NCBI GenBank assembly: GCA_022072255.1
Contig: JAJVHZ010000011.1
Span: 39,540-103,539, forward strand
From: Gammaproteobacteria bacterium
GTDB taxonomy: Bacteria > Pseudomonadota > Gammaproteobacteria > JAJPIJ01
Length of the DNA: 64,000 nt
Reading direction: 5' to 3'
The notes beneath the pieces were generated by a model, which was not told the origin of the DNA, did no database searches, and saw only the letters and a program-made list of their open reading frames with translations. Positions 6,349-41,010 of the stretch are shown here, piece by piece (position 1 is the first letter of the stretch; each line of letters starts with the position of its first letter). A program made the translations under genes and the position numbers.

Positions 6349-7430
6349 TTCGGCCGTTCCTGGCCGCCGTCCTGCCGGACGAGCAGGTCGATCACCTGCT
6401 GGCGATCGATCATCCCGACTATCGCGGAGCTGCCGTCGACCACGGCATGAGGCTGCGGGCTCTCGACGATCTGTCTGGCCACTGACGCGACCCGCGCCTC
6501 CGCCCGCACCTGCCCGGCATACTCCACCCGCTCGTCGGGCGCGCGCATCAGCGCCCTTACGCTCAGCACCTTCGCCCGCGGGATGTCGCGCGTGAACTCG
6601 GATACGTACGCGGTCGCGGGATGCGTGATCAGCTGCTCGGGCGTGCCGATCTGGATGATCTCGCCGTCCTTCATGATCGCGATGCGATCGGCGAGCCGGA
6701 TGGCCTCGTCGAAGTCGTGGGTGATGAATGCGATGGTCTTCTTCAGGACGCTCTGGATCCGCAGGAATTCATCCTGCATCTCCCGGCGGATGAGCGGATC
6801 CAGGGCGGAGAAGGGCTCGTCCAGGAACCAGATATCCGGTTTCACCGCCAGCGAACGCGCGATCCCGACGCGCTGCTGCTGCCCGCCGGAGAGCTCGCGC
6901 GGATAGCAGGATTCCCGGCCCTTCAATCCCACCAGCTCGATCATCTCGCGCGCCCGCGCCTCGCGCGCCTGCCGCTCCACGCCCTGCACCTCCAGCGGGA
7001 AGGCGACGTTGCCGAGGACGGTCAGGTGCGGCAGCAGCGCAAAGTTCTGGAACACCATCCCCATCTTGTGGCGCCGGATCTCGATCAGCTCGGTCTCGGT
7101 CGCCTTCAGCAGATCCCGGCCGTCAAACAGGACCTGGCCGGCCGAGGGCTCCACCAGCCGGGACAGGCAACGCACCAGCGTGGACTTGCCGGACCCCGAC
7201 AGGCCCATGATGACGAAGATCTCGCCCTCGTGGATGGCAAACTCGACGTTGCGGACCGCCGCGATCAGGCCCGCCCCGTGCAGGTCGGCCGCCGACGGCG
7301 TGCCCGGGAGCATCGCCTGGAAGCGATCGGCGCTCGTTCCGAAGACCTTCCAGAGTCCGCGGCACGCGAGCTTGACGGCGCGCGTGCCGCGCACCGGGTG
7401 GTCCGCGTCACGGGAAGCGGGATCGGCCAT
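6345..7430 (-). CDS. proV: Glycine betaine/proline ABC transporter ATP-binding protein with C-terminal CBS domains
   Basis: Walker A GLSGSGKST, signature LSGGQQQRV and Walker B FLDEPFSALD. The C-terminal extension is typical of ProV/OpuAA. Confidence 0.85.
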   Translation of the reverse strand: MADPASRDADHPVRGTRAVKLACRGLWKVFGTSADRFQAMLPGTPSAADLHGAGLIAAVRNVEFAIHEGEIFVIMGLSGSGKSTLVRCLSRLVEPSAGQVLFDGRDLLKATETELIEIRRHKMGMVFQNFALLPHLTVLGNVAFPLEVQGVERQAREARAREMIELVGLKGRESCYPRELSGGQQQRVGIARSLAVKPDIWFLDEPFSALDPLIRREMQDEFLRIQSVLKKTIAFITHDFDEAIRLADRIAIMKDGEIIQIGTPEQLITHPATAYVSEFTRDIPRAKVLSVRALMRAPDERVEYAGQVRAEARVASVARQIVESPQPHAVVDGSSAIVGMIDRQQVIDLLVRQDGGQERPK

Positions 7431-8746: not shown

Positions 8747-9505
8747 ATGTTCCCGACACGACGGGAGTCCGAGATACTTCAGGCCGTGCGCCTGCAGGGC
8801 TCCTGCAGCATCGGCGAGCTCGCGGCGCGCTTCGGCGTGTCGGAGGAAACGATCCGCCGCACCGTCAAGCCACTCGTCAGCAGCGGCCTGGTCAGGAGGG
8901 TCCACGGCGGCATCGTGCTGCCGGATCGGTTGAACGAGCCGCCTTTCCAGCGGCGGATGCAGGAGAATCGCGAAGCCAAGCAACGGATTGCCGCGGCCGT
9001 GGCCGCGCGGATCAAGGACGGGGACTCTCTCATGCTGGATACCGGATCGACCACCGCCTATACCGCCCTCGCGCTCGCCAACCACTCCAATCTCGTCATC
9101 ATCACGAACTCGGTGGAGATTGCGCGGATGCTCGCCAGCCGCAACGGCAACCGCGTCTGCATGGCCGGCGGCGAGCTGCGTGCCGATGATGGCGCCGCCT
9201 TCGGGCAGGCGGCCCAGGATTTCGTCCGGCGCTTCCATGTCGACTACGCGATTCTCTCCATCGGCGCGATAAACGAGGCCGGCGTGTTCATGGACTATCA
9301 TCTCTGCGAGGGCGAGTTCTCGCGCGCCGTCATCGAGCAGGCCAGCGAGGTCATCGTGGTGGCGGATCGGTCCAAGTTCGGCACGCGCGCCCCGGTCAAG
9401 GTCTGCGACGCCGAGGCCGTCGATCTGCTCGTCACCGACGGCGCCATTCCGCGCAGGCTGATGCGGAGATTCGTGCAGTCCAATACGCGGGTGGTAGCGG
9501 CCTGA
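8747..9505 (+). CDS. DeoR/GlpR family transcriptional regulator
   Basis: N-terminal HTH (RESEILQAVRLQGSCSIGELAARFGVSEETIRR) plus a DeoR C-terminal sugar-phosphate-binding-like domain. Divergent from the proXVW operon. Start taken at MFPTRRE (8747). Confidence 0.75.
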   Translation: MFPTRRESEILQAVRLQGSCSIGELAARFGVSEETIRRTVKPLVSSGLVRRVHGGIVLPDRLNEPPFQRRMQENREAKQRIAAAVAARIKDGDSLMLDTGSTTAYTALALANHSNLVIITNSVEIARMLASRNGNRVCMAGGELRADDGAAFGQAAQDFVRRFHVDYAILSIGAINEAGVFMDYHLCEGEFSRAVIEQASEVIVVADRSKFGTRAPVKVCDAEAVDLLVTDGAIPRRLMRRFVQSNTRVVAA

Positions 9506-9565
9506 GGCCGCGCCCGCATCGGCGACCGTCAATCGTTCAGGCAGCCACTTGCCCCGCTCGCCCTG

Positions 9566-9593
9566 TTGACATAGTTAGCTACCTAACTATAAT
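9566..9593 (+). promoter_or_regulatory. Near-consensus sigma-70 promoter (TTGACA-N16-TATAAT) with an inverted-repeat operator (TAGTTAG-N5-CTAACTA) in the spacer
   Basis: TTGACA at 9566-9571 and TATAAT at 9588-9593. The spacer tagttagctacctaac contains TAGTTA/TAACTA inverted arms. Lies immediately upstream of the MarR gene. Confidence 0.6.
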
Positions 9594-9600
9594 GGGCGCC

Positions 9601-10104
9601 ATGCTGCAGCTCAAAGACCTACCCGACGCCCTGATACTCGGCAAATTCGCCGACCGCTACGGGGCGGTGGATGTCGATGCGGTGCTCCAGTTCCTGAGCA
9701 TCCTTCGCATCGGGACCGATCTTTCCGAGGCCCTGGACGGCTTTCTGGCCAGACGCGGCCTGCTTCAGGGCCGCTGGTGGGTGCTGATCCTGCTCATGCG
9801 CGAGGATGACCTGACCTCGACACCGTCGGAGCTGGCGGAAAAATCCGGCGTCAGCCGGGCCACCATGACCCGGCTGATCGACGGGCTGGCGCGCGACGGC
9901 CTGGTGAAACGCCTGGGCGACCGCAGCGACCGCAGGAAGTACTCCATCAGGCTGACCGCGGCCGGGCAGGCCAGGCTGGACGAGGTGATGCCCGAATACT
10001 ACCCGCGCGTGAAGCGCATGATGAAAGTCCTGTCCGCAGCGCAGCGCGAACAGCTATTGCAGAACCTGCTGCTGCTCAAGGAGCGCAGCAAGGTATTCCA
10101 GTGA
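9601..10104 (+). CDS. MarR family transcriptional regulator
   Basis: Winged-helix region TPSELAEKSGVSRATMTRLIDGLARDGLVKRLGDRSDRR. Start is ambiguous: the track's 9592 overlaps the -10 box, so 9601 is used and the mRNA may be leaderless. Confidence 0.75.
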   Translation: MLQLKDLPDALILGKFADRYGAVDVDAVLQFLSILRIGTDLSEALDGFLARRGLLQGRWWVLILLMREDDLTSTPSELAEKSGVSRATMTRLIDGLARDGLVKRLGDRSDRRKYSIRLTAAGQARLDEVMPEYYPRVKRMMKVLSAAQREQLLQNLLLLKERSKVFQ

Positions 10105-28236: not shown

Positions 28237-30264
28237 TCACGGCGACCCCGGCCCAAGCTGCGCAAGCCCGGGACCGGAGTCGCAGCTGGCCGGCGTGGTG
28301 CTCTCCGCGGCGACGTACGCCACGCGCTCGCGCAGCGGCCGGACCTTCTCCTGCAGGCGCATCTCGTAGAGTGCGGTGTAGAAGAGGATGTTGCGCACGT
28401 AGCGGCGCGTCTCGGTGAACGGAATCGTGTCCACCCAGATGTCGGCCTCGATGCAGTCACGCAGCGGCCGCCATTTCTTCACCCGCAGCGGGCCGGCATT
28501 GTACGCGGCTGCCGCCATCGCGAGGTTGCCGCCGTGCCTGTCGAGCATGTCGCGCAGGTAGGCCGAGCCGATCATCACGTTGGACTGCGCGCGCAGCAGG
28601 TCCGCGGTCGTGTGCGACGACAGGCCGATGCGCCTGGCGGTCAGCTTGCCGGTCGCGGGCATGACCTGCATCAGGCCGAGCGCCCCGGCGGGAGAGCGGG
28701 CGAATTCGTTGAAGGCGCTCTCCGAGCGGATGAAGCTCAGCATCACCGCCGGCTCGAGGTTGCGCTCGCGCGCGTAGCGCTCGACGACGTCGGTGTAGCC
28801 GAGCGGGAATCGCACCTCGAGGTCGTCGTATTCCCTGGCCTTGCCGAGCGAGGCGATCGCGCGGTCGTACCACTGCAGCCGGTGCGCGGCCGCCGCCGCC
28901 TCCATGAGTCCCTGCCTGTCCAGGCTGGCGATCTCGAAAGTCCATTCCGCCCGCGCCGGCGCATCGAGCTCCAGGACGTGCAGCTCGCGCGCCCGCTCGA
29001 TCCCCGGCCTGCTCAGGAAGGAGGCCACCTGCGCCGCGGAAACGGGCAGGGGCCGGTGATTGAAGCTGTAGGGGGCGCCGAGGATACCTGCCGACATCAG
29101 TCCGTAGTAGTCACGTTCCGCTACCAGCTGCCGGAAGATCGTCTCGGCCTCGTCCTGCCGGCCCAGTTGCTGCAGCGCGCGCGCGCGCCAGTACAGCCAG
29201 CGCGAGGCGTTCATGTCGTCGGCTGCAGGCCGCGTTGTCCAGCGCGTGATGCGATTCCAGTCGCGATGCTCCAGCGCCGCCATCAACTGCGCACGTTGCA
29301 GGTCCGCGCTTGTGTTTCCCTCCGGGACCTCATCGAGGATTGCGAGCGCGTCGGAGCGCTCCTGACGCACGGCGGCCATGGCGATGCCCGCGGCGATCCG
29401 TCCCCGTTCCTCGGAACTGAACTGGTAATCCTCGTGCCGTCTCTGCCACTCGGTGGCGGCCGCGCCGGCATTGCGGCGCGCGAGCCGCTCTACGCCGCTG
29501 CGCACGATGGCGCGCGTGACCGGCGTGTCGGCGCGCAGCAGCGGGCTGCCGAGATGTTTCTGCGGGTCGCTGGCGACGTCCTGCCAGACCTTCAGCAACG
29601 GTGGCTGCCATTCAGGCAGTGCGCGGGCCAGCTGTTGCGCCAGCGCGGTGTTGCCCTCGTCGAGCGCCAGGCCGAGACGCCGCAGCACGGTGTCCGCGGT
29701 CAACGCGCCCGTGCGGCCGAGCCAGTCGTCGACCGCGTCGCACGCCGGCGGCAACGACACACCGGTCATCCACAGTTCGAACGCCTCGGCCTCGAGCGCC
29801 GCCGGCGGACTATCGGCCGCCACCAGTGCCTGGACGTGCGCGCACCGCAGCGGGATCTTCTGCTGAGGGGCATAGTCGGCGAGAAATTCCGTCCATCGCT
29901 CCTGCCTCGCGAGCATCGTCAGCCATTGCGTGCGCAGGCGCTCACCGGCCATCGTCCCGGCATTGTCCGCGAGGAACTGCCGCACCGCGGCGCGCGCGGC
30001 CTCGATCCCGTCCTTATCCAGCCTGTGCCGCAGGGATTCGTACTGCAGGTGTGGGTAGAGCAGGTAGTCCTCCAGGCCCGCGCTCAGGCTCTCGCCCCTG
30101 GCGAAATCCCTGGACTGAAAGGCGCTGTAGGCGCGGCGGAACTGCGCGCGCACCGCGTCGCCGGCTGCGGACGCCGGTCCCGCCGCGCCCGTGGTCAGGG
30201 CGCAGAGCAGCAGGACGACGCGACCGGTACGGCGCCGCCAGGGCGGCAAGCGATGCACACGCAT
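28237..30264 (-). CDS. slt: Soluble lytic murein transglycosylase (Slt70 family)
   Basis: Signal peptide, a superhelical N-terminal domain and a C-terminal lysozyme-like catalytic domain (ESAFNEFARSPAGALGLMQVMPATG ... AYNAGP). Confidence 0.85.
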   Translation of the reverse strand: MRVHRLPPWRRRTGRVVLLLCALTTGAAGPASAAGDAVRAQFRRAYSAFQSRDFARGESLSAGLEDYLLYPHLQYESLRHRLDKDGIEAARAAVRQFLADNAGTMAGERLRTQWLTMLARQERWTEFLADYAPQQKIPLRCAHVQALVAADSPPAALEAEAFELWMTGVSLPPACDAVDDWLGRTGALTADTVLRRLGLALDEGNTALAQQLARALPEWQPPLLKVWQDVASDPQKHLGSPLLRADTPVTRAIVRSGVERLARRNAGAAATEWQRRHEDYQFSSEERGRIAAGIAMAAVRQERSDALAILDEVPEGNTSADLQRAQLMAALEHRDWNRITRWTTRPAADDMNASRWLYWRARALQQLGRQDEAETIFRQLVAERDYYGLMSAGILGAPYSFNHRPLPVSAAQVASFLSRPGIERARELHVLELDAPARAEWTFEIASLDRQGLMEAAAAAHRLQWYDRAIASLGKAREYDDLEVRFPLGYTDVVERYARERNLEPAVMLSFIRSESAFNEFARSPAGALGLMQVMPATGKLTARRIGLSSHTTADLLRAQSNVMIGSAYLRDMLDRHGGNLAMAAAAYNAGPLRVKKWRPLRDCIEADIWVDTIPFTETRRYVRNILFYTALYEMRLQEKVRPLRERVAYVAAESTTPASCDSGPGLAQLGPGSP

Positions 30265-30483
30265 GCGCTAATTGTTGCCGGCATGTGGCTTGCGCACAAG
30301 ACGCCGGTGTGGGATGGTCGCTGCGCCGCGGCGGCGGCCCCGGCGAGACAGGAGTTCGGGGCGCCGCGAGCGGTCACCGCCTCGTCGCAGCGGCCGCGCA
30401 GATCGGCGGCGAGATCTGCGATCATCCCGCCGGCAGGCTCCCCGGGGCCGCTCGCCCGAGCCCCACGGAGACTCGAACCCCGC

Positions 30484-31269
30484 ATGACGATACTCATCTA
30501 CCTGCTGCTCGGCGTGTTCGCGGGGTTTCTCGGCGGTCTGCTGGGGCTGGGCGGCGGCATCGTCGTGGTGCCCGCGCTGTTCTTCATCTTCCGCGGCCTG
30601 GGATTCCTGCCCGGGGCGATCATGCACATGGCGATCGGCACCTCGCTCGCCACGGTCGTGCTGACGGCGACCGTCTCGACCTGGGCGCATCACCGCCGCG
30701 GCGCCGTGATGTGGCCTGCGGTCGCGCGTTTCGCACCGGGCATCGTGGTCGGCAGCCTCGCCGGGGGCGTGCTCGCGGATCAGCTCGCGGGCACCGCCCT
30801 GCGCATCTTCTTCGGGCTGTTCGAACTCCTGATCGCCCTGCAACTCGCCTTTGGATTGCAGCCGAAGCCGACGCGCACGCTGCCGTCCACGGGGACCATG
30901 GCCGCCGTCGGGGCGGGCATCGGCGGACTCTCGGCAGTGTTGGGTATCGGCGGCGGCACGATGACCGTTCCGTTCCTGGTGTGGTGCAACGTCGGGATCC
31001 GCCAGGCGGTGGCGACCTCGGCCGCCTGCGGCCTGCCGATCGCGGTGGCCGCCACCGTCAGCCACGTGATCGCCGGGCTGCACACGACCGGCCTGCCCGT
31101 GGGGGCGATCGGATACGTCTACTGGCCGGCGGTCGTCGTGACCGGGCTGGCCAGCGTGGTCTTCGCGCCGCTGGGGGCGCGGGTGGCGCACGCGATCCCG
31201 ATGACGGCGCTCCGCTGGATCTTTTCGACGGTGCTGGCGATCATCGGCGTCCGCATGCTCATGGGCTGA
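30484..31269 (+). CDS. TauE/SafE (DUF81) family sulfite/anion exporter membrane protein
   Basis: About 262 aa with two internal repeats of Gly-rich TM helices (GLLGLGGGIVVVP and VLGIGGGTMTVP). Confidence 0.75.
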   Translation: MTILIYLLLGVFAGFLGGLLGLGGGIVVVPALFFIFRGLGFLPGAIMHMAIGTSLATVVLTATVSTWAHHRRGAVMWPAVARFAPGIVVGSLAGGVLADQLAGTALRIFFGLFELLIALQLAFGLQPKPTRTLPSTGTMAAVGAGIGGLSAVLGIGGGTMTVPFLVWCNVGIRQAVATSAACGLPIAVAATVSHVIAGLHTTGLPVGAIGYVYWPAVVVTGLASVVFAPLGARVAHAIPMTALRWIFSTVLAIIGVRMLMG

Positions 31270-31281
31270 AGCGGTCGCCAT

Positions 31282-31740
31282 TTGTGCCATCGGCGTTATG
31301 ATCCGCGCATGCAGCACGCTCTGCAGGTTCGGCCGTACGGAACTCCGGCGACCAGGCATTGCCTGGAGATCGGCGCATTCGAGCTTGGGGCGCAGCGGCG
31401 CGATGCGGGCGCCGAGACCAGGCGCGGCCCCCGACGACGGCTGCGCTGCGCCCGATGCGGACATGCGATCACCGAGGCCGAACAGCGCATCGTGGTCGGC
31501 GGCAGCCACGCCCATCGGTTCGCCAATCCCTCGGGCTGGGTCTACGAGATCGGGTGCTTTCGTGACGCCGCCGGCTGCTCGACGGTTGGCGATCCGGTCG
31601 CCGAGCACACCTGGTTCGCGGGCTATCGCTGGCAGATCGCGGTCTGCGCGCAGTGCGGCGGACACCTCGGCTGGCGTTACCGCGGGGGCGAGGCGATCTT
31701 TCACGGCCTCATCCTGGAGAGGCTGACTGCCGAACAGTGA
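31282..31740 (+). CDS. Bacterial cereblon-like CULT domain protein
   Basis: Two CxxC pairs (CARCGH and CAQCGGH) and a tri-Trp motif EHTWFAGYRWQIAVCAQCGGHLGW. The latter aligns to the human CRBN thalidomide-binding pocket ([24 protein letters not shown]). Confidence 0.7.
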   Translation: MCHRRYDPRMQHALQVRPYGTPATRHCLEIGAFELGAQRRDAGAETRRGPRRRLRCARCGHAITEAEQRIVVGGSHAHRFANPSGWVYEIGCFRDAAGCSTVGDPVAEHTWFAGYRWQIAVCAQCGGHLGWRYRGGEAIFHGLILERLTAEQ

Positions 31741-31768
31741 GACCAGAGGCCCCGACCGGATCACATAC

Positions 31769-32341
31769 ATGGAACCTAAGCCCACGCTGTCTCCGGAGAC
31801 CGTCGCGCACCTGCTCTCGACGCGCCGCACGATCCACGACTTCAAGCCCGGCTTGCCGCCGCCGGAGGTGATCCACGCCGCCATCGACGCGGCGCGCTGG
31901 GCGCCCAACCACCGCCTGACCGAGCCCTGGCACTTCTACCTGCTCGGGCGCGAGACCGCCGATGCCATTGCCGACCTCAATGCCGATCTGATCGCCGCGA
32001 GCGGCGACGCCGCCGGCGCCGAACGGAAACGCAAGCGATGGCGCGCCGTACCGGGCTGGCTGTTGCTGACCTGCGAGCGATCGGAGGACGCGGTGCGCGC
32101 GCGGGAGGACTATGCCGCCTGCTGCTGCGCGGCGCAGAACATGTTGCTGTATCTCTGGAGCGCCGGTGTCGGCGTGAAGTGGACCACCGGTCAGGTGGTG
32201 TGCGATCCGCGCTTTTTCGAGCTGACCTGGATCGACCCGGAGCGCGAGACGGTGGTGGGGATGTTCTGGTACGGCTATGCGGCAGAGGTGCCGGCGACGA
32301 CGCGCAGACCGGTGGACGAGGTCCTGGTGCGGCTGCCGTGA
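31769..32341 (+). CDS. Nitroreductase family protein
   Basis: 190 aa carrying the RRTIHDF, WAPNHRLTEPW and KWTTG family motifs. Confidence 0.7.
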   Translation: MEPKPTLSPETVAHLLSTRRTIHDFKPGLPPPEVIHAAIDAARWAPNHRLTEPWHFYLLGRETADAIADLNADLIAASGDAAGAERKRKRWRAVPGWLLLTCERSEDAVRAREDYAACCCAAQNMLLYLWSAGVGVKWTTGQVVCDPRFFELTWIDPERETVVGMFWYGYAAEVPATTRRPVDEVLVRLP

Positions 32342-33378
32342 CGGGCGCTGCGCTGCGGGTACCGGGGCATGTTCCGCTCGCGGTGGCCACACGCGGCGGC
32401 ATCGTCGAGGCGGTGCATCATGGCTCGATCGCGGTAGTCGACGCCGTCGGCCGCACCCTGCACGCCTGCGGCGACAGCCAGGCCGTCATCTTCCCGCGCT
32501 CCAGCCTCAAGCCCTTCCAGGCCATGCCGCTCATCGCCCATCCGCAGTTCGTGCGGCTGCAGTTCACCGGCAGGGAGATCGCGCTCTGCTGTGCCAGCCA
32601 TTCCGGCGAGCCCCGGCACGCCGAGGCGGTGGCGGAAATGCTGCACAAGATCGGATGCAAACAGCAGGATCTGCAGTGCGGCACGCATCCGCCGTTGTAC
32701 TTCGAGGCCATGGGCATCCGGCCGCGCGCCGAGGATATCTACACGCCCGTGCACCACAACTGCTCCGGCAAGCACACCGGCATGCTGGCCCTGAGCGCGC
32801 TGCTCGAGGCTCCGGTCGACGGCTACGTGGAGATCGATCACCCGGTGCAGAGGGCGATACGCGCCGCGGTGGCGCATTTCAGCGGGGTTCCGGCCACGGA
32901 CCTCGTGGTCGGCATCGATGGCTGCAGCGCGCCCAACTTCGCGCTGCCGCTGGCGGCCCTGGCCCGCGCCTATGCGCGTCTCGGGCGCACCGATCCCGAC
33001 GGGAAATACGGTGAGGCGCCGCGAACGATCGTCGAATCCATGGTCGCGCACCCGGAGATGGTCTCGGGCATGAAACGCATGGACCTGGCCCTGGCGCATG
33101 CCGGCCATGGCGATTTCGTACCGAAGAGCGGGGCCGAAGCGGTGCACGCGATGCTGGTGCGTGGGCGCGGGATCGGGATCGCCGTAAAGGTCGCGGACGG
33201 GGCGGCCCGTGCCCTGCACGTCGTCATCGTCGAGACGCTGCGTCAGCTCGGGCTCGTGGGCGAGCTTGCCGACACGCCGCTGGAGTGCCATGCGCGGCCG
33301 CCGATCCGCAACTGGCGGGGCGTGACCACGGGCGAGGTGCTGCCGGTCTTCGCGCTGACTCCGGCGTCGCCTGCATGA
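32338..33378 (+). CDS. Asparaginase II (Rhizobium AnsA-type, PF06089) family protein
   Basis: RGGIVEAVHHGSIAVVDAVGRTLHACGD...RSSLKPFQAMPLI resembles the R. etli asparaginase II N-terminus. GTG start overlaps the upstream stop (GTGA). Confidence 0.65.
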   Translation: MTGAALRVPGHVPLAVATRGGIVEAVHHGSIAVVDAVGRTLHACGDSQAVIFPRSSLKPFQAMPLIAHPQFVRLQFTGREIALCCASHSGEPRHAEAVAEMLHKIGCKQQDLQCGTHPPLYFEAMGIRPRAEDIYTPVHHNCSGKHTGMLALSALLEAPVDGYVEIDHPVQRAIRAAVAHFSGVPATDLVVGIDGCSAPNFALPLAALARAYARLGRTDPDGKYGEAPRTIVESMVAHPEMVSGMKRMDLALAHAGHGDFVPKSGAEAVHAMLVRGRGIGIAVKVADGAARALHVVIVETLRQLGLVGELADTPLECHARPPIRNWRGVTTGEVLPVFALTPASPA

Positions 33379-33794
33379 CAGTCGCGCAGGAATCCATCAG
33401 TATCCATACGGGCGGACGCGGCGCGCACGACATCACCTCGGAGGTTGAACGCGTCGTCGGGGGAAGCGGCGTGCGCATCGGCACCTGCCACGTATTCGCG
33501 AGCCACACCAGCGCCTCGCTCATCGTCTGCGAGAACGCCGACCCGCAGGTGCTGGGCGACCTGGAGGCCTGGCTCGCCCGGCTGGTGCCGGACGGAGATC
33601 GCCTGTTCCGGCACACCGCGGAGGGGCGCGACGACATGCCGGCGCACGTGCGCTCGGTGCTGACGCATACGGACGTCGTGCTGCCGGTGAGCGCGGGCCG
33701 CCTGCGGCTCGGCACCTGGCAGGGCGTTTATCTGTACGAGCATCGCATCGCCGCGCACACGCGGCAGGTCATCATCACCGTCCAGGGAGAGTGA
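33375..33794 (+). CDS. YjbQ/UPF0047 family protein (secondary thiamine-phosphate synthase-like)
   Basis: Start MTVAQESISIHTGGRGAHDIT. About 139 aa. ATG overlaps the upstream stop (ATGA). Confidence 0.7.
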   Translation: MTVAQESISIHTGGRGAHDITSEVERVVGGSGVRIGTCHVFASHTSASLIVCENADPQVLGDLEAWLARLVPDGDRLFRHTAEGRDDMPAHVRSVLTHTDVVLPVSAGRLRLGTWQGVYLYEHRIAAHTRQVIITVQGE

Positions 33795-33796
33795 GC

Positions 33797-35575
33797 ATGA
33801 GTTTCAGGTCCGGAGTTGTGCGTGTGGTCGTGACCTTCCTCGCGGGGCTGATGGTCCCGGCGGTGCATGCCGGCGAGGGTGACTGGCCGCTGCATGGCCA
33901 CGACTACGGCAACACCCGCTTCAGTCCGCTGCGGCAGGTGACGCGTGAGAACGTCGGCAAACTGCAACTGGCGTGGACGATAAACACCGGCAGGAAGGCC
34001 TCCTTCCAGACGACCCCGATCGTGGTCGACGGCGTCATGTACATCACGACCCCCTACAACGACGTGCTGGCGCTGAATGCCGCCACCGGCGAGCAGGTCT
34101 GGCGCTACAACCACGTGCTGCGCACGGAGGAGTTCTGCTGCGGGCCGGCCAATCGCGGCGCCGGCGTGGCGGGCGGCAGGCTCTACATGGCGACGATCGA
34201 CAACCGCCTGCTCGCGCTCGACACTGCCACCGGCGCCGTCGCCTGGGACGTCGAGATCACCAACACCGACCCCGGCGTGCGCGAGGCGGTGGCACCATTG
34301 CTGGGCGAGGCCCTGTTCAAGGACGCGACCGTCACCGGCGGCACCGGCTACAGCGCCAACATGGCGCCGCAGGTGTTCGACGGCAAGGTCTACGTCGGCA
34401 TCACCGGCACCGGCTACGGACTGCACCTGGACCTCAAGGACAAGGGCGATGCGGCCCTGTCGGTCGTCGGGTTCTCCGGCGGCGACAACGGGCTGCGCGG
34501 TTTCCTGGCGGCCTACGACGCGGCGACGGGCCGTGAGCTCTGGCGCTGGCACACCGTGCAGGACGAGCGCTGGGTCGGCGAGTGGCGCGCACGCACGCCC
34601 GACGGCGTGGCGCTGAACCGCGATCTCGACGCCGAGAAGGCGGCGGCGGCGAAGTGGCGGGACGCGTGGCGGCTCGGCGGCGGATCGATCTGGACCACGC
34701 CGGCGATCGACACCGGGACGCGCACGCTGTACATCGGCACCGGCAATCCCGCCCCGCAGATGGATGACCAGACCCGCCCGGGCGACAACCTCTACACCAG
34801 CAGTGTCGTGGCGCTGGACGCCGACACCGGCAAGCTGAAGTGGGGGTACCAGCTCGTTCCGCACGATCGCTGGGGCTACGACGCCGCCAGTCCGCCGGTG
34901 CTCATCACCGTGCAGCGTGACGGGACCACGATCCCCGCCGTCGCCGCCGCCGGCAAGACCGGCTGGGTGTATGTGCTCGACCGGCGCAGCGGCGAGCTCA
35001 TCTACAGGTCCGAGCCGTTCGTCCCGCAACGCAACCTGTTCGCACGGCCCACGGCCGAGGGCGTGGAGATCGCGCCGGCGATACTGGGCGGCGGCCAATG
35101 GTCGCCGGCCGCCTACGACAGCGCGACCCACACCTATTTCATCGAGGGGGTCCACCATCCCGCGACCTACTACACGAAACCGCTTACGCCCACCCCCGGC
35201 ATGCCCTGGACGAGCTACACCTATATGGAACTGTCCAAGTCCGAGCGCGGCGGCACGCTGACGGCCATCGACGCGGCCAACGGACGCATACGCTGGCAGC
35301 AGCAGACCCCGGAACCGTTGCTGGGCGGCCTGGCCGTCACTGCCGGCGGGCTGGTGTTCGCCGGGGAGGGCGACGGCCGTTTCAGCGCCTTCGACGCCGA
35401 CGGCGGCGCGCGTCTCTGGAGCTACCAGGCGGAGGCCGGGGTCAACGCCCCGCCTGTCGTCTATGAGGTCGGCGGCAGGCAGTACGTGGCGGTGGCGGCA
35501 GGGGGGAATTCATTGTTCAACTTCAAGACCGGCGACGGGCTCCTCGTCTTTGCCCTGCCGGCGGGTGAGCGGTAG
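33797..35575 (+). CDS. PQQ-dependent dehydrogenase (quinoprotein alcohol dehydrogenase family), secreted
   Basis: Signal peptide, vicinal Cys-Cys (EEFCCGPANRG), an eight-bladed beta-propeller with Trp docking motifs, and conserved DGxxxW repeats. Preceded by AGGGAG. Confidence 0.8.
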   Translation: MSFRSGVVRVVVTFLAGLMVPAVHAGEGDWPLHGHDYGNTRFSPLRQVTRENVGKLQLAWTINTGRKASFQTTPIVVDGVMYITTPYNDVLALNAATGEQVWRYNHVLRTEEFCCGPANRGAGVAGGRLYMATIDNRLLALDTATGAVAWDVEITNTDPGVREAVAPLLGEALFKDATVTGGTGYSANMAPQVFDGKVYVGITGTGYGLHLDLKDKGDAALSVVGFSGGDNGLRGFLAAYDAATGRELWRWHTVQDERWVGEWRARTPDGVALNRDLDAEKAAAAKWRDAWRLGGGSIWTTPAIDTGTRTLYIGTGNPAPQMDDQTRPGDNLYTSSVVALDADTGKLKWGYQLVPHDRWGYDAASPPVLITVQRDGTTIPAVAAAGKTGWVYVLDRRSGELIYRSEPFVPQRNLFARPTAEGVEIAPAILGGGQWSPAAYDSATHTYFIEGVHHPATYYTKPLTPTPGMPWTSYTYMELSKSERGGTLTAIDAANGRIRWQQQTPEPLLGGLAVTAGGLVFAGEGDGRFSAFDADGGARLWSYQAEAGVNAPPVVYEVGGRQYVAVAAGGNSLFNFKTGDGLLVFALPAGER

Positions 35576-35592
35576 GGGCGGGGCGTCGACGG

Positions 35593-36888
35593 GTGTGGCG
35601 ATTGTTCAAGTATGCCTTCTGGCTGGCGCTGACCGCGCTACTCCTCGGTCCATTCGTCCTGGCGGCGATGATGTTCGAGGCGGCCCCACGCATCACGGGC
35701 GATGCGAAGATCGCGGTCGAGGACGTCGAGCGGCTCAAGACACTGCTCAAGCAGAACGACCCGCGTGACCTGCGCGAGGGCGAGACGCGCCGGATTGAAC
35801 TCAGCCAGCGGGATATCAACCTTGGTGTCGAATACGTACTATCCCGGCTGCCGCTGGTGCAGGGGGCGGTGGCACGAACCGAGGTCGCGGCCGGCCACGC
35901 CACGGTCGAGGCGAGCCTCCCGACGCCCGGCAATCCGTTCGGCCAGTACTGCAACCTGTCCATGCGCCTGCGCCCGGCCGCGCGCGGTGTGGCCGTCGAC
36001 GCGCTGCGGGTCGGACGTGTGCCGGTCCCGGGGTGGCTGCTGGGCAGGGCGCTCGAGCTCGCGGATGGTCGCGCGCGGGATATCGCGGGCTACCGTGAGG
36101 CCAGCGACGTCGCGCAGGCCATCTCCGAGGTCGACTTCCGGCCCGGGGCCGTCGCGTTCGTCATGCAGTGGCATGGTGACCTCGCCCGGCGCGTCGAGCG
36201 GCAGGGGCGCGAGCTGGTGCTGCCCGCCGAGGAGCGCGCCCGCCTGCAGGTGCACTACGAGGAGCTGGCGCGGATCCTGAGCAACCGCCTCAAGGACGGC
36301 GACTCACTGGTGTACTTGTTGCGCCCGATGTTTTCCTACGCCGCGGATCGCAGCGAGGACGGCAATGACCCGGCGAAGGAAAACAAGGCGGCGATGGTCG
36401 CCCTGGCGCTGTATGCCGCGGCGGCGCCGGAGGATCTGGGACGCCTGTTCGGCGACGAGGAGGCGCGGGGTCTGACACCGCTGAAGGCGGTCGAGGTCAC
36501 GCTCGACGGGCGCGCCGATCTGGCCAGGCACTTCCTCGTCTCCGGGGCGTTGAGCGCCGCGGCCAACGACGTGATCGCCGATGTCATCGGCGTGTTCAAG
36601 GAGGTCCAGGACTCCCGCGGCGGTTCGGGCTTCAGTTTCGCGGATCTCGCCGCGGACCGGGCCGGGGTGCGCTTCGGACAGCTTGCCGTTCGATCGCCCG
36701 ACGCGCTCCAGCAGCGAGTCGCGGCGGCCGCCGAGGAGCGCGAGTTCATGCCATCCGTGGGAGACCTGCCCGAGGGCATGCAGGAGCCGGAGTTCATCCG
36801 GCGCTTCTCGAACCGCGACAGCAGCGCCTACGCCGAGGTCGTGGCCGAGATCGAGAGCCGCCTCGATCGCTGCGTGCTGTTCCGCTGA
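35593..36888 (+). CDS. Hypothetical membrane-anchored protein (single N-terminal TM, large extracytoplasmic domain)
   Basis: 431 aa with TM segment FWLALTALLLGPFVLAAMMF. No recognisable family. Starts 17 nt after the PQQ dehydrogenase gene. Confidence 0.5.
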   Translation: MWRLFKYAFWLALTALLLGPFVLAAMMFEAAPRITGDAKIAVEDVERLKTLLKQNDPRDLREGETRRIELSQRDINLGVEYVLSRLPLVQGAVARTEVAAGHATVEASLPTPGNPFGQYCNLSMRLRPAARGVAVDALRVGRVPVPGWLLGRALELADGRARDIAGYREASDVAQAISEVDFRPGAVAFVMQWHGDLARRVERQGRELVLPAEERARLQVHYEELARILSNRLKDGDSLVYLLRPMFSYAADRSEDGNDPAKENKAAMVALALYAAAAPEDLGRLFGDEEARGLTPLKAVEVTLDGRADLARHFLVSGALSAAANDVIADVIGVFKEVQDSRGGSGFSFADLAADRAGVRFGQLAVRSPDALQQRVAAAAEEREFMPSVGDLPEGMQEPEFIRRFSNRDSSAYAEVVAEIESRLDRCVLFR

Positions 36889-36933
36889 CGCCGGTCGGCG
36901 GGCATCGGCGGCACCGCCCGCGCGTCGCGGCGC

Positions 36934-38046
36934 TCACCGCTCGGCGCCCAGGGCACGCGCGCGCCCCAGCGTGGCGGCGCGTCGGCGTTCGTCGGCCGCG
37001 GCATCCCACCCGTCGCTCACCTCGGGCCAGCCGGCCGCATGCCGCAGCGCCAGTTCCACCAGTGCGTCGATATGCCCGGCGTCTTCGTTGAGCGCGGGGA
37101 TGTAGCTGTATCGATCGCCGCCGGCCTGCAGGAAGGCGTCGCGGCCGCGCATGGCGATCTCCTCGAGCGTCTCCAGACAATCGGCGGAGAATCCCGGGCA
37201 GAGCACGTCCAGCGATTTCACACCGCGGGCGGGCAGCCCGCGCAAGGTGACGTCCGTGTATGGCTGCAACCATTGCGCGGGCCCGACCCGCGACTGGAAC
37301 GCTACCAGGCATTCGTCCGTTCCCAGCCCCAGCGCCTCGCAGAGCAGCCGTGCGGTCTTCCTGCACTGGCAGTGATAGGGGTCGCCGGCCAGCATGTATT
37401 TTCGCGGTATGCCGTGAAACGACAGCAGCAGCCGTTCGCCGCGGCCATGGCTCGCCCAGTGCGACTCCACGGATCGCTTCAGCGCGCCTATGTATAGGCC
37501 GTCGTCGTGGTAGCTCATCACGGTGCGCAACTCCGGCACCCAGCGCCAGGTCCGCAGTACCGCGCTCACGGCGTCCACGGTCGAGGCGGTCGTGGCCGCG
37601 CAGTATTGCGGATACAGCGGCAGCACGAGCAGACGCCGTGCGCCAGCCTCGCGCAGCTCCGCCATCGCGGCGCGTATCGAGGGATTGCCGTAGCGCATGC
37701 CGAGCGCGACTTGTACCGGTCCCGGACAGCGCGCCTGCAGTGAGTGCTGTAGCGCGGCGGCCTGCCGGCGCGAGAACACGAGCAGTGGCGAGCCCGCCTC
37801 GGTCCAAACCTGTCGATAGGCATGCGCCGATTTGGCGGGGCGAATGTTGAGGATGACGCCGTGCAGGAGCGGCAGCCAGACCATGCGAGGTGTCTCGACG
37901 ACGCGCGGATCGGCGAGAAACTCCGCGAGGAACCGGCGCAGCGCTCTCGGTGTGGGTTCATCCGGCGTGCCGAGGTTGGTGAGCAGTACGCCCAGGCAAC
38001 TGCGCGCGTCGTGGCGGAAACCGGATTGTCCCTGATAGGCAGTCAT
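36934..38046 (-). CDS. hemH: Ferrochelatase
   Basis: LLTNLGTPDEPT and LPLYPQY motifs and 370 aa length. Start at MTAYQG (38046). Confidence 0.85.
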   Translation of the reverse strand: MTAYQGQSGFRHDARSCLGVLLTNLGTPDEPTPRALRRFLAEFLADPRVVETPRMVWLPLLHGVILNIRPAKSAHAYRQVWTEAGSPLLVFSRRQAAALQHSLQARCPGPVQVALGMRYGNPSIRAAMAELREAGARRLLVLPLYPQYCAATTASTVDAVSAVLRTWRWVPELRTVMSYHDDGLYIGALKRSVESHWASHGRGERLLLSFHGIPRKYMLAGDPYHCQCRKTARLLCEALGLGTDECLVAFQSRVGPAQWLQPYTDVTLRGLPARGVKSLDVLCPGFSADCLETLEEIAMRGRDAFLQAGGDRYSYIPALNEDAGHIDALVELALRHAAGWPEVSDGWDAAADERRRAATLGRARALGAER

Positions 38047-38121
38047 GCGCGCGTGGCTTGCTACCGCGAGTACGGGCGGCGAGTATAGCAAGCCATCAAC
38101 CCCGGCAGCAGGAGACGAGAC

Positions 38122-38484
38122 GTGCACATCAGGCGGACGGTGGATTGCGAGGCCTATACGGCCAACGACGGCTGTGCCATACGCGAGCTGCTGCATCCGG
38201 AGAATGAGCCCGTCGCATTGCCGTATTCACTCGCTGAAGCTCGGGTGGAGCCCGGCGCGCGGTCCTGTCGCCACAAGCTGGCGGGCGCGGAGGTCTACTA
38301 CATCCTGGAGGGTTGCGGCGTGATGCATGTCGACGCCGAGGCGGGACCCTGCATGCAGGGCGACGTCGTTCATGTCCCGGCAGAGGCCGTGCAGTGGATC
38401 GAAAACCCCGGCGTCAATCTGCTGCGGTTCCTCTGCATCGTCAGTCCTCCCTGGCGCGTCGAGGACGACACGCGCCTGGAGTGA
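38122..38484 (+). CDS. Cupin domain protein
   Basis: 120 aa. The HKLAGAEVYYILEG ... GDVVHVPAE region fits a conserved-barrel cupin. Confidence 0.55.
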   Translation: MHIRRTVDCEAYTANDGCAIRELLHPENEPVALPYSLAEARVEPGARSCRHKLAGAEVYYILEGCGVMHVDAEAGPCMQGDVVHVPAEAVQWIENPGVNLLRFLCIVSPPWRVEDDTRLE

Positions 38485-38511
38485 TCCACGCGCGCTCGGG
38501 CACGCGCCGGT

Positions 38512-41010
38512 TCAGGCTATCCTCCGCAGGACGCTGGCCGGCGGTTCCGCGAGAGCGCCGCGCAGGCCTGCCAGACCGAAGGCGCCCACGCCGAGCACGC
38601 CGGCCAGCGTGCCGATCGGCCACAGCCAGAGGTTGATCCGATAGGTGACGTGGAATACGTGTCCGGCCAGCAGCCACGCGGTCAGGCCGGCGGCGCTGGC
38701 GGCGAGCACGCCGGCGACCAGACCGATGACGATGAATTCTGCCAGCAGGCTGCGCGTGACGATCGCGCGCGCGGCGCCGAGGCTGCGGAGCAACGCGCTC
38801 TCCCGCGCGCGCTCGTCCTGCGTGGCCTGCAGGGCAGCCACGAGCACGAGCGCGCCGGCGGCAAGCGTGAACAGGAACACGAAGCGCACGGCGAGGTTCA
38901 CCCGATCCATGATCAGCCGCACCTGATCCATGACGGCGGCGACGTCGATGACGGTAACGCTCGGGAAGAGTCGCACGAGCTCGTTGAGCGCCGTACGCTC
39001 CTGCGCCGGGAGATGGAAACTGGTGATGTAGGTGGCGGGCATCTGTTCCAGCAACCCCGGCGCGGCGATCACGAAGAAATTCACGTTGAAGGAATCCCAC
39101 TGCACGTCGCGCAGGCTGGTCACCGGCGCCCTGATGGTCTCGCCGGCGATGTCGTAGGTCAGCGTGTCTCCGAGGCCGATCCCGAGCGTCTCGGCGATGC
39201 CGGATTCCATCGAGAACTGCGGCGCGGCCCCGGCCGTCTCCGGCCACCACCTGCCGGCCGTCACGACGTTGTCCGGCTGCATGCGCCCGGCCCACGAAAG
39301 GTTGAATTCGCGGTCGACGAGCCGTCGCGCGCGCGGGTCTTCATAATCCGAGGGCTGAACCGGCTGCTCGTTGATGGCGGTCAGCCGGCCGCGAACCATG
39401 GGGAACACGCCGCCGGTCTTCAGCCGGTGCCCTGCCAGGAAATCGCGCAGTGGCCCGACCTCTGCCGGCGGGATGTTGATGACGAACTGGTTGGGCGCGC
39501 CAGGCGGGATCTTCCCCTGCCAGCCGGCGATGAGGTCGCCATGCACGAGGGTGATCAACAGCATCGCCATGATGCCCAGACCCAGCGCCACTATCTGCAC
39601 GCTGCTGGTGCGCGCCCGCCTGGCGACGCTGGCAAGCCCGTAACGCCAGCTCACCCCCACGTGCCGCCGCAGGCGGCCGAGCGCCTGCACGGACAGCCAC
39701 GCCGCGATCGCCAGCGCCGCGATCGCCAGCAGGCAGCCGCCGAGCAGGTAGAGCGTGAGCGCAACGTCGCGGGCCTGCCAGGGGGCGACGGCGAGCAGCG
39801 CCAGCAGCGCCACCGCGTACACGATCGCGCTGCGTACCGGTACCGGCGCGAGGTCGCGGCGCAGCACGCGCAGCGGCGGCACGTTCTTCAGGGAGAGTAT
39901 CGGCGTCAGGGCGAAGCCGACCAGCACGAGGAAGCCGATGAGCATTGCCCCGGCGACGGCGGCGAGCGATGGCGACGGCAGCGCGCCGCCGACGAATCCG
40001 CTGAGCGTCCCCGCCAGGACATGCTGCGCGATATAGCCCAGCGCCACGCCCGCGATGCTCGCGATCGAGGCGAGCACCAGCATCTCGATCAGCAGCATGC
40101 CGGTGATGGTGGCCTGCGTGGCGCCGAGGCAGCGCATGACGGCGGCGGTGTCGAGGTGGCGTTCGGCATAGCGGCGGGCAGCGAGCGCGATCGCCACGCC
40201 GGCGACGATGACCGCCGTCAGGGCTGCCATGCCGAGGAACAGATCCGCGCGCTCCAGGGCGGTGCGAAGTTCGGGCCGGGCATCGCCGACATCGAGCACC
40301 TTCAGGCTGCGGTCGTTCAGGTGCGCCCATTGCCCGCGCAAGGCCGCGATCGCCTTCTGGTCGCCGGCCACGAGCAGGCGATGATTGACGCGGCTGCCGG
40401 GCATCACGAGTTGTGTCGCCGCGACATCGGCGAGGTTCATGATTGCGCGCGGGGCGATGCTGAAGAAGTCGCCGCCGCGGTCGGGTTCGAGCACCAGCAC
40501 CCTGTCGACGCGCAGCGCGACGGCGCCGACGGTCACGGTCTGGCCGAGGTCGATCTTCAGCGCCTGCAGCAGGCGCGCGTCCGCCCATAGCGTTCCCGGC
40601 GCCGGCACCTCGCGTACCTCGCGTGCCGCGTCGAATGGGGCGTCGGCGATGGACACGTTCCCGCGCAGGGGATAGCGTTCGTCGACGGCCTTCAATTCGG
40701 TCAGTTGCAGGCGTTCACCGCTCTGTATGACGCTGCGCATCGACAGGGTACGAGCGGTATCCAGCCCCAGTCCACGCGCGGCTTCGGCCAGCGTTTCCGG
40801 TATGGCATTGGCACTCTCCACGGCCAGATCCGCGGCCAGCAGGGCGTTGCCCTGCGCGTGGAGCGCGCGTTCGGCGCGGTCCACGAACAGACTGACCGCG
40901 CTCAGCGCCGCGACCGCGGTCAGGATCGCCACCATGATGAGTGTCAGCTCGCCGGCGCGCAGATCGCGACGGACGTTGCCGAGACCGAGCCTGAGCATGC
41001 GGGCAATCAT
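38512..41010 (-). CDS. ybbP: ABC transporter permease, YbbP/FtsX-like with two FtsX domains
   Basis: About 830 aa with repeated FtsX 4-TM modules. ATG overlaps the upstream ATPase stop (ATGA). Confidence 0.75.
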   Translation of the reverse strand: MIARMLRLGLGNVRRDLRAGELTLIMVAILTAVAALSAVSLFVDRAERALHAQGNALLAADLAVESANAIPETLAEAARGLGLDTARTLSMRSVIQSGERLQLTELKAVDERYPLRGNVSIADAPFDAAREVREVPAPGTLWADARLLQALKIDLGQTVTVGAVALRVDRVLVLEPDRGGDFFSIAPRAIMNLADVAATQLVMPGSRVNHRLLVAGDQKAIAALRGQWAHLNDRSLKVLDVGDARPELRTALERADLFLGMAALTAVIVAGVAIALAARRYAERHLDTAAVMRCLGATQATITGMLLIEMLVLASIASIAGVALGYIAQHVLAGTLSGFVGGALPSPSLAAVAGAMLIGFLVLVGFALTPILSLKNVPPLRVLRRDLAPVPVRSAIVYAVALLALLAVAPWQARDVALTLYLLGGCLLAIAALAIAAWLSVQALGRLRRHVGVSWRYGLASVARRARTSSVQIVALGLGIMAMLLITLVHGDLIAGWQGKIPPGAPNQFVINIPPAEVGPLRDFLAGHRLKTGGVFPMVRGRLTAINEQPVQPSDYEDPRARRLVDREFNLSWAGRMQPDNVVTAGRWWPETAGAAPQFSMESGIAETLGIGLGDTLTYDIAGETIRAPVTSLRDVQWDSFNVNFFVIAAPGLLEQMPATYITSFHLPAQERTALNELVRLFPSVTVIDVAAVMDQVRLIMDRVNLAVRFVFLFTLAAGALVLVAALQATQDERARESALLRSLGAARAIVTRSLLAEFIVIGLVAGVLAASAAGLTAWLLAGHVFHVTYRINLWLWPIGTLAGVLGVGAFGLAGLRGALAEPPASVLRRIA

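Follow-up and report, generated by a model that had tools for sequence, protein, structure and literature searches.

Five tightly packed genes in the 64,000-nt stretch of gammaproteobacterial DNA analysed here (the window), together with two same-strand genes directly upstream, probably represent a lineage-specific gene string that forms one operon of unrelated enzymes rather than a hidden pathway (Table 1). A sequence-only reading had recognised the five as a nitroreductase, an asparaginase-II-family (PF06089) protein, YjbQ, a secreted PQQ-dehydrogenase with a vicinal Cys-Cys and an anchored protein of no known family, and had proposed that they form a single functional unit. The assignments were borne out by the profile scores and topology listed in the table, and the start/stop overlaps and recurrence of the string in relatives stand as well; against a functional unit speak the loss of single members in relatives and the absence of the partners outside the lineage. 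Since relatives gain and lose the genes singly, the arrangement resembles an ordinary lineage-specific operon and probably not a pathway.

Table 1. Genes of the string and its flanking anchors, with coordinates in the window.
Feature	Coordinates	Strand	Evidence
Soluble lytic transglycosylase (SLT), 5′ boundary, divergent	28237..30264	-	PF01464/PF14718 in L001
TauE/SafE-family membrane permease	30484..31269	+	PF01925, E 7e-52
Single-domain bacterial cereblon (CULT) protein	31309..31740	+	phmmer vs PDB: MsCI4 4v2y, E 2e-26
Small FMN nitroreductase-family protein, 190 aa, cytoplasmic	31769..32341	+	PF00881, 76 bits (threshold 23.5)
PF06089 (class 3 L-asparaginase-like) amidohydrolase, GTG start	32338..33378	+	PF06089, 367 bits (threshold 25)
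YjbQ/UPF0047 protein	33375..33794	+	PF01894, 137 bits; TIGR00149, 140 bits (cutoff 67.75)
Secreted eight-bladed PQQ-dehydrogenase-like propeller, unnamed clade	33797..35575	+	PF01011, 300 bits
431-aa protein, unnamed family	35593..36888	+	N-terminal transmembrane helix, no Pfam family
Ferrochelatase (hemH), 3′ boundary, convergent, syntenic anchor	36934..38196	-	PF00762 in syntenic locus L001

Direct reading of the sequence recovered every junction claimed earlier. The GTG start of the PF06089 gene (32338-32340) is overlapped by the nitroreductase stop codon TGA (32339-32341) in a GTGA tetranucleotide, and the ATG of the YjbQ gene overlaps the PF06089 stop codon in the ATGA at 33375-33378. The YjbQ stop codon (33792-33794) is followed by the PQQ-dehydrogenase ATG at 33797, which is preceded by a Shine-Dalgarno-like GGGAGAG; an alternative in-frame start, GTG at 33791, would create a further GTGA overlap with the YjbQ stop. 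The 431-aa ORF starts with GTG at 35593, 17 nt after the PQQ-dehydrogenase stop codon TAG (35573-35575). The distances among the five genes are -4, -4, -4 (or +2) and +17 nt. The GTG start of the PF06089 gene is backed by tblastn matches which in many loci extend to residues 1-8 of the query, and the ATG at 33375 is the sole start codon for YjbQ within 60 nt; no Shine-Dalgarno-like motif was found upstream of either start. The overlaps are real, which argues for co-transcription and translational coupling. The five packed genes are probably transcribed together, most likely in one operon running from the TauE or the CULT gene through the 431-aa gene, and termination-reinitiation at the three 4-nt overlaps would probably translate the downstream genes.

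The string is longer than noted earlier, with the TauE and CULT genes directly upstream at distances of +39 nt (to the CULT gene) and +28 nt (from the CULT gene end to the nitroreductase start). All of these genes, the five and the upstream two, lie on one strand and are so closely spaced that neither a terminator nor a promoter would fit between them. The TauE gene, the probable first member, and the SLT gene diverge from a 219-nt spacer; TauE precedes the PF06089 gene in L005-L007, L014, L018, L021 and L028 (related loci are numbered with the prefix L). The position of the SLT gene is conserved in L005, L006, L014, L018, L028 and L090 and serves as a syntenic anchor, as does hemH, found with tblastn at 57-93% identity in L005-L007, L014, L085, L086, L089 and L090. 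A consensus scan for promoters and terminators, uninformative overall, gave no terminator-like site between the five genes, and its sole promoter-like match is a weak one between the TauE and CULT genes. An Rfam scan of positions 29000-39000 returned no riboswitch or other RNA, and the 45 nt that separate the 431-aa gene from hemH show no more folding than shuffled controls (z = -0.4). Neither a transporter nor a regulator dedicated to the string turned up.

Among proteins of known structure, the nearest relatives of the nitroreductase are 2i7h (E 4e-17) and YdjA (3bm1, E 8e-10). Its score against the YdjA equivalog model NF008088 is 34 bits, with a cutoff of 183, and by sequence it would be classed as a member of the PF00881 superfamily of undefined subfamily. 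The PF06089 protein is homologous over its full length to the Rhizobium etli enzymes ReAIV (8cly, E 1e-58) and ReAV (7os3, E 1e-53). The S-x-x-K, C-S-G-K-H and G-C-S motifs, which we take to hold the catalytic Ser/Lys and the Zn-binding Cys/Lys/Cys of ReAIV/ReAV, are kept and align with those of 8cly, so that both score and motifs are those of a class 3 enzyme; there was no match to an NCBIfam equivalog. The R. etli class 3 asparaginase genes presumably adjoin an asparagine permease and an aspartase. Unlike those genes, the PF06089 gene described here has TauE, CULT, nitroreductase and YjbQ genes as neighbours.

YjbQ scores over its full length above the curated cutoff of TIGR00149 ('secondary thiamine-phosphate synthase enzyme') and is related to several structural-genomics structures, for example 2p6c (E 6e-17). 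It is encoded next to a PF06089 gene, an adjacency that we saw only in some Gammaproteobacteria; the ATGA overlap of the two genes recurs in L005, L085, L090 and L011. The literature gave nothing relevant on a link between YjbQ and asparaginase.

The cereblon-like family, to which the upstream CULT protein belongs, binds cyclic imides. Similar to MsCI4 from Magnetospirillum gryphiswaldense, the protein consists of a single CULT domain with two CxxC zinc pairs and a Trp/Trp/Trp/Tyr ligand cage that align to 4v2y, thus having the residues expected of this domain; unlike MsCI4, it carries about 45 additional N-terminal residues. The score against the Pfam Yippee-Mis18 model (18.5 bits) is under the cutoff. 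Bacterial CULT proteins comprise the CULT domain alone and have been reported mostly from Deltaproteobacteria (PMC4287342), whereas the host here is a gammaproteobacterium. The gene is present in L005, L006, L014, L085, L090 and the P0013 contig and absent from L007, L018 and L021. Four CULT homologs elsewhere have unrelated neighbours, with neither a nitroreductase nor a PF06089 gene adjoining, and on the strength of these four loci a functional link between CULT and PF06089 through cyclic imide or asparagine chemistry was rejected as a general rule.

The PQQ-dehydrogenase was aligned to ExaA (1flg), ADH-IIB (1kv9) and PedH (6zcv), and conservation in its clade was assessed over 119 homologs. 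It resembles ExaA and PedH (6zcv/6zcw) over the whole eight-bladed propeller (E 1e-73 and 1e-70), and shares with them a signal peptide, ending at AVHA/GEG, the vicinal Cys-Cys and the Asn ligand in G-N-P. C114-C115 and N317, aligning with C105-C106 and N266 of ExaA, are invariant in the 119 homologs. Unlike ExaA, the protein lacks the residues that we take to be the catalytic base (D316) and the Glu metal ligand (E179) from the ExaA/MxaF structures. The position of D316 is occupied by G360 in three independent alignments and is Gly in 115 of the 119 clade members, with an Asp two residues further on, where PedH has its extra lanthanide ligand; E179 corresponds to D230, in a column that is mostly Gly (73/119). 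The score of 428 bits against TIGR03075 (methanol/ethanol family) is under the cutoff of 480. An invariant G-Y-G-L-H segment inserted in the clade sets it apart from both ExaA and PedH, and no gene for a cytochrome c or MxaJ-like partner lies nearby. The literature gave nothing relevant on PQQ clades without the catalytic base. The active site of the clade has an atypical W-G-Y-D.

The 431-aa protein begins with a transmembrane helix (residues 2-27), followed by an alpha/beta domain (about residues 65-192); its helical C-terminal domain contains the invariant motif S-R-G-G-S-G-F-S-F-x-D-L-x-A-D-R-A-G, and haem or other redox motifs are absent. A profile of the family found no match among PDB sequences. 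The region of the C-terminal motif is weakly similar to the DUF2279/YfiM lipoproteins: NF008028 gives E 7e-5 and 23 bits, with a cutoff of 117, and PF10043 is matched by 17 of 59 family members at E ≤1 (best E 0.0035). As every score is far under the cutoffs, membership of DUF2279/YfiM was rejected; the 431-aa protein has four times their length, a transmembrane helix as anchor where they carry a lipobox, and the additional alpha/beta domain.

The arrangement is not unique to the source genome. At least six MAGs or contigs of related Gammaproteobacteria carry the full string (L005, L006/L001, L085, L090, L086 on a partial contig, and the P0013 contig). L005, L085 and L090 show exactly these overlaps, which the P0013 contig has as well. 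String and overlaps thus persist to some depth, with 431-aa proteins of only 48-49% identity (L006, P0013 contig), a point against an operon of unrelated enzymes. The full string was found only where the unrelated flanks are also syntenic, with epimerase-SLT on one side and hemH-cupin-FtsX on the other (L005, L006, L085, L090). Within this same frame other, somewhat more distant loci miss different subsets, so that members are not gained and lost together. L014 is without the PQQ-dehydrogenase and the 431-aa protein, and L007 reads TauE-nitroreductase-DUF1499-PF06089-hemH, the CULT, YjbQ, PQQ-dehydrogenase and 431-aa genes being absent. L089 has a nitroreductase, PF06089, another gene, a PQQ-dehydrogenase (72% identity), a VanZ-like gene and hemH, with neither YjbQ nor the 431-aa gene, and L018, L021 and L028 show TauE-DUF1499-PF06089. 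YjbQ is missing from L007, L018 and L089, and DUF1499 replaces or adjoins the nitroreductase in other loci. In every one of the six full-string loci, and in L086 too, the PQQ-dehydrogenase and 431-aa genes lie side by side.

Outside the lineage the set dissolves. In 72 PF06089 loci of 45-54% identity, mostly from Betaproteobacteria, every other string gene is missing, and the neighbours across the approximately 70 betaproteobacterial loci are genus-specific housekeeping genes only. Similarly, no string partner adjoins the PQQ-dehydrogenase in 41 loci of its clade (51-63% identity), the nearest case being L095, which has a YjbQ homolog on the other strand at a distance of about 2 kb; ORF clustering over these 41 loci gave no recurrent neighbour, none occurring in more than nine loci, and none of them has a 431-aa homolog. 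Four 431-aa homologs of 37-44% identity lie in unrelated contexts from which the PQQ-dehydrogenase is absent; neither these nor the four CULT homologs have any string partner beside them. With no partners outside the lineage and independent losses within it, the PF06089-YjbQ-PQQ trio, whose neighbourhood the sequence-only reading had suggested checking, is not conserved. The set is kept where downstream synteny is lost in one case only, and there in part: L011 (51% GC, no hemH downstream) retains mutually overlapping DUF1499, PF06089 and YjbQ genes, with the ATGA overlap of the last two and DUF1499 in front, which gives the PF06089-YjbQ pair some independent support and suggests that this sub-module may be functional. 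These patterns are consistent with a string assembled stepwise in a variable slot between the stable SLT and hemH anchors. The older part would be PF06089 downstream of TauE, usually with the nitroreductase and/or DUF1499 and often with YjbQ, and the secreted PQQ-dehydrogenase-like and membrane-anchored 431-aa proteins would be a 3′ addition in the closest relatives only.

It is highly improbable that all five genes form one pathway for an unknown compound, in which periplasmic oxidation by the quinoprotein would be followed by cytoplasmic amide hydrolysis and reduction. The three consecutive 4-nt overlaps are the densest run in the window, and gene order and overlaps are repeated in at least six related contigs, which speaks for such a pathway, but members are lost independently in the syntenic loci L014, L007 and L089, adjacent co-occurrence outside the lineage is lacking in 72, 41 and 8 loci (the nearest case being L095), a dedicated transporter or regulator was not found and the literature gives no link. 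A pathway confined to the source lineage may be compatible with the presence/absence patterns. Mere adjacency with several internal promoters, the overlaps being by-products of a compact GC-rich genome, is very unlikely, although tight spacing is common in the window: about half of its same-strand neighbour pairs are no more than 35 nt apart, and a 4-nt overlap is possible in six of approximately 31 such pairs, three of which are the consecutive ones of the string and the others are at 6345/6348, FtsX/ABC and 58195/58198. The single promoter-like match would also suit internal initiation. However, a terminator does not fit where a stop codon overlaps the next start, no terminator-like site was seen within the five-gene run, and the starts of PF06089 and YjbQ both lack a Shine-Dalgarno motif.

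Rather unlikely, too, is the fusion of two modules in one transcript, a cytoplasmic one acting on an amide (nitroreductase and/or DUF1499, PF06089, YjbQ) and a periplasmic pair, in which the 431-aa protein would assist the PQQ-dehydrogenase as a partner, for instance in docking, maturation or electron transfer. The occurrence of the cytoplasmic genes without the pair in L014 and L011, the overlaps kept in L011, and the constant adjacency of the two genes for exported or anchored products in the full-string loci agree with this division. It is opposed by L089, with a PQQ-dehydrogenase but no 431-aa gene, by the lack of 431-aa homologs in all 41 other PQQ-dehydrogenase loci and of PQQ-dehydrogenases in all four other 431-aa loci, by the missing redox motif and by the three loci without YjbQ. 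Under the preferred reading of one operon of unrelated enzymes, the nitroreductase, PF06089 protein and YjbQ would act in the cytoplasm and the other two products in the periplasm, and the products most likely share expression and not a substrate.

The pathway candidate itself matters little, and the comparison shows that in a compact GC-rich genome a shared pathway cannot be inferred from tight start/stop overlaps alone. Quite unlikely as a whole is a joint reading of a DUF1499/nitroreductase-PF06089-YjbQ amidohydrolase module beside a distinct quinoprotein clade. Its first part could be an unrecognised gammaproteobacterial module with a substrate other than free asparagine, here adjoining a cereblon-like protein. 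The second could be a separate class of PQQ (or non-PQQ) propeller enzymes with a catalysis of its own, and with the 431-aa protein as a lineage-specific partner; the clade has thousands of members without the canonical catalytic Asp and Glu ligand. This clade, very large and unnamed, has a remodelled active site and is a modest lead, as is the recurrent PF06089-YjbQ(-DUF1499) adjacency, which could help to find out what two poorly characterised families do. A further modest lead is the membrane-anchored 431-aa family, for which a confident predicted model was obtained that has no structural relative in the PDB.

In the sequence-only reading, five translationally coupled genes were described, running from the nitroreductase to the gene of a membrane-anchored 431-aa protein. 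The ORF map and direct reading of the junctions agree with the start/stop overlaps and the 17-nt gap reported there. The GTGA at 32338-41 holds the nitroreductase stop together with the PF06089 start, and the ATGA at 33375-78 forms the PF06089/YjbQ junction. The ATG at 33375 is the sole option for the YjbQ start within 60 nt, and tblastn matches elsewhere, reaching query residues 1-8, lend credence to the GTG start of PF06089. A Shine-Dalgarno motif was found before neither of these genes; the ATG of the PQQ-dehydrogenase-like gene is preceded by the Shine-Dalgarno-like GGGAGAG, and an alternative in-frame GTG at 33791 would make a third GTGA overlap. This gene stops at TAG (35573-75), 17 nt before the GTG of the 431-aa ORF. 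In a rough map of all genes in the window, a 4-nt overlap is possible in 6 of about 31 same-strand neighbor pairs, three of which are the consecutive ones of the string; tight spacing is common in the host genome (69% GC), and the string is the densest run.

The string extends further 5' than had been noted, with two more same-strand genes ahead of the nitroreductase, and is bounded by genes on the opposite strand. Scans of the string region gave no Rfam element and neither a promoter nor a terminator that was convincing. Read from translations only, the rest of the window seems to include core genes, among them rpoD, dnaG, rho and glnA, and on that reading the region would be core chromosome and not an island. 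The 5' ends of the longest listed hemH ORF and of the cupin ORF overlap by about 75 nt; hemH probably starts further downstream in reality, because homologs have 370 amino acids vs 420 in the window.

Genes of the string and its borders (string genes from the nitroreductase onwards: ORF map, junctions read directly)
Feature	Coordinates	Strand	Remark
Lytic transglycosylase (SLT)	28237-30264	-	divergent; bounds string on TauE side
TauE/SafE permease	30484-31269	+	39-nt gap to next gene
CULT (cereblon) homolog, 143 aa	31309-31740	+	28-nt gap to nitroreductase
Nitroreductase (NTR)	31769-32341	+	
PF06089	32338-33378	+	GTG start
YjbQ	33375-33794	+	ATG start
PQQ-dehydrogenase-like	33797-35575	+	ATG start
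431-aa ORF	35593-36888	+	GTG start
Ferrochelatase (hemH)	36934-38196	-	convergent; bounds string on 431-aa side
Cupin	38122-38484	+	

A search with PF06089 against one genome per GTDB species gave 80 loci, which with their 10-kb flanks were queried with twelve proteins encoded in this region. The complete order from TauE to the 431-aa gene is found in loci L005 (90% identity) and L006 (68%), whose flanks also match (epimerase-SLT and hemH-cupin-FtsX); L006 has an extra DUF1499 gene, in its region at about 8 kb, inserted ahead of PF06089. In L014 (53%) the order epimerase-SLT-TauE-CULT-NTR-PF06089-YjbQ is followed directly by hemH, and both the PQQ dehydrogenase and the 431-aa gene are absent. 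L007 (59%) reads TauE-NTR-DUF1499-PF06089-hemH (DUF1499 at 1438-2001) and L021 reads TauE-DUF1499-PF06089 (DUF1499 at 4834-5298). TauE and PF06089 lie about 0.5 kb apart in L018 and L028, which gave no NTR or CULT match; these two loci would share the layout of L021, with a putative DUF1499 gene. DUF1499 is directly 5' of PF06089 in several related Gammaproteobacteria, yet missing from the window. The other 72 loci, mostly from Betaproteobacteria (45-54% identity), contain none of the other string genes, and clustering of their neighbors returned genus-specific housekeeping genes only.

A metagenome scan with the PQQ dehydrogenase gave 46 loci. The full string is present in L085 (95%), L090 (92%) and, on a partial contig, L086 (84%). 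L089 (72%) lacks YjbQ and the 431-aa gene and reads NTR-PF06089, an unrelated 280-aa ORF, the dehydrogenase, an opposite-strand gene that is weakly VanZ-like, and hemH. In this syntenic relative the 280-aa ORF (5976-6818) and the VanZ-like membrane protein gene (8848-9771) occupy the YjbQ and 431-aa positions, which shows turnover within the same slot. At 41 loci of 51-63% identity no string gene adjoins the dehydrogenase, and no ORF family recurs beside it in more than 9; one of them, L095, carries an opposite-strand YjbQ homolog at a distance of about 2 kb. For the 431-aa family, which has no Pfam domain, 295 members were detected; the protein of the window is identical to a hypothetical protein from a MAG labelled Gammaproteobacteria bacterium. 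One homolog of 49% identity lies on a contig with the whole string and 4-nt overlaps, and those at 37-44% identity have unrelated surroundings in all four cases (Methylomonas, Competibacteraceae, another gammaproteobacterium and an unclassified bacterium). For four CULT homologs, all on long contigs, the neighbors are unrelated.

The arrangement has been passed down in a single gammaproteobacterial lineage whose neighboring housekeeping genes are just as syntenic. Between TauE and hemH the gene content varies gene by gene inside a stable frame, which is the mark of a variable slot that gains and loses genes, and not of a selected pathway cluster. The claim that the five genes are one functional unit is not supported, as the full string is confined to one lineage with syntenic flanks and its members vary singly; a single five-gene pathway is highly improbable, for all the tightness of its junctions. 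Uniqueness to this genome, which the sequence-only reading had named as speaking against one unit, was not found, since relatives share the arrangement, but beyond common descent this conservation says nothing about function. The one exception is L011 (51% GC; PF06089 50% identical), where DUF1499 (265-759), PF06089 and YjbQ mutually overlap with the same ATGA junction, followed by DUF427, a 194-aa ORF that reads like a putative pseudoazurin, and others in place of hemH. Because the overlapping trio is kept with downstream synteny lost (about 260 nt of contig precede DUF1499, so that synteny is assessable on the downstream side only), a PF06089-YjbQ(-DUF1499) sub-module is plausible from these few loci.

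The PQQ-dehydrogenase-like protein has a Sec-type signal peptide, as read from its sequence, and falls in a very large clade that has no name (more than 5000 matches at E ≤ 1e-60). In each of three independent alignments (ExaA, ADH-IIB, PedH), Gly360 takes the position of the catalytic Asp, Asp230 that of the Glu ligand, and Asp362 that of the extra lanthanide ligand of PedH. Among 119 homologs the W-G-Y-D motif (region of residues 360-362), with Gly in place of the canonical catalytic Asp, is nearly invariant, the Glu ligand is not conserved, its column being mostly Gly, and the inserted G-x-T-G-x-G-Y-G-L-H (residues 201-210) is invariant except at the x positions. The Asn ligand is invariant, as is the vicinal Cys-Cys pair that had been noted. 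The protein is not filed in the methanol/ethanol family because it scores under the TIGR03075 cutoff; it probably works like a member of that family with a remodeled metal site.

We consider it rather probable that the string is a single transcript with reinitiation at the overlaps and products that act separately. Transcription would probably start upstream of TauE or CULT, and ribosomes ending one gene would reinitiate on the next. The nitroreductase, amidohydrolase and YjbQ would remain in the cytoplasm, and the quinoprotein-like propeller and the anchored 431-aa protein would act in the periplasm. The main rival, two real modules fused into one transcript, would suit the trio of L011 and has to be set beside the variation of single genes; it is unlikely. 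There is only a small chance that PF06089, YjbQ and DUF1499 form a module, or that the W-G-Y-D quinoproteins are a class of their own in catalysis, with a lineage-specific partner. The finding is real but ordinary, a probable lineage-specific operon of known-family members and one unnamed family.

Pfam and NCBIfam agree on the four families named earlier, and returned nothing for the 431-aa protein, likewise described as being of no known family. The nitroreductase, a small protein of its superfamily, is closest to 2i7h and YdjA but scores far under the YdjA equivalog cutoff. The PF06089 protein can be aligned over its full length with the class 3 asparaginases of Rhizobium etli and retains S-x-x-K, C-S-G-K-H and G-C-S, residues with catalytic and zinc-binding roles in the published structures. 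The YjbQ protein is a standard member of its family. The 143-aa protein is a single-domain CULT protein that matches MsCI4 (4v2y) with an E-value of 2e-26, and both CxxC pairs and the Trp/Trp/Trp/Tyr cage are kept. We know of no cellular role for bacterial CULT proteins; the CULT gene adjoins that of the nitroreductase and, nearby, that of the asparaginase-like amidohydrolase.
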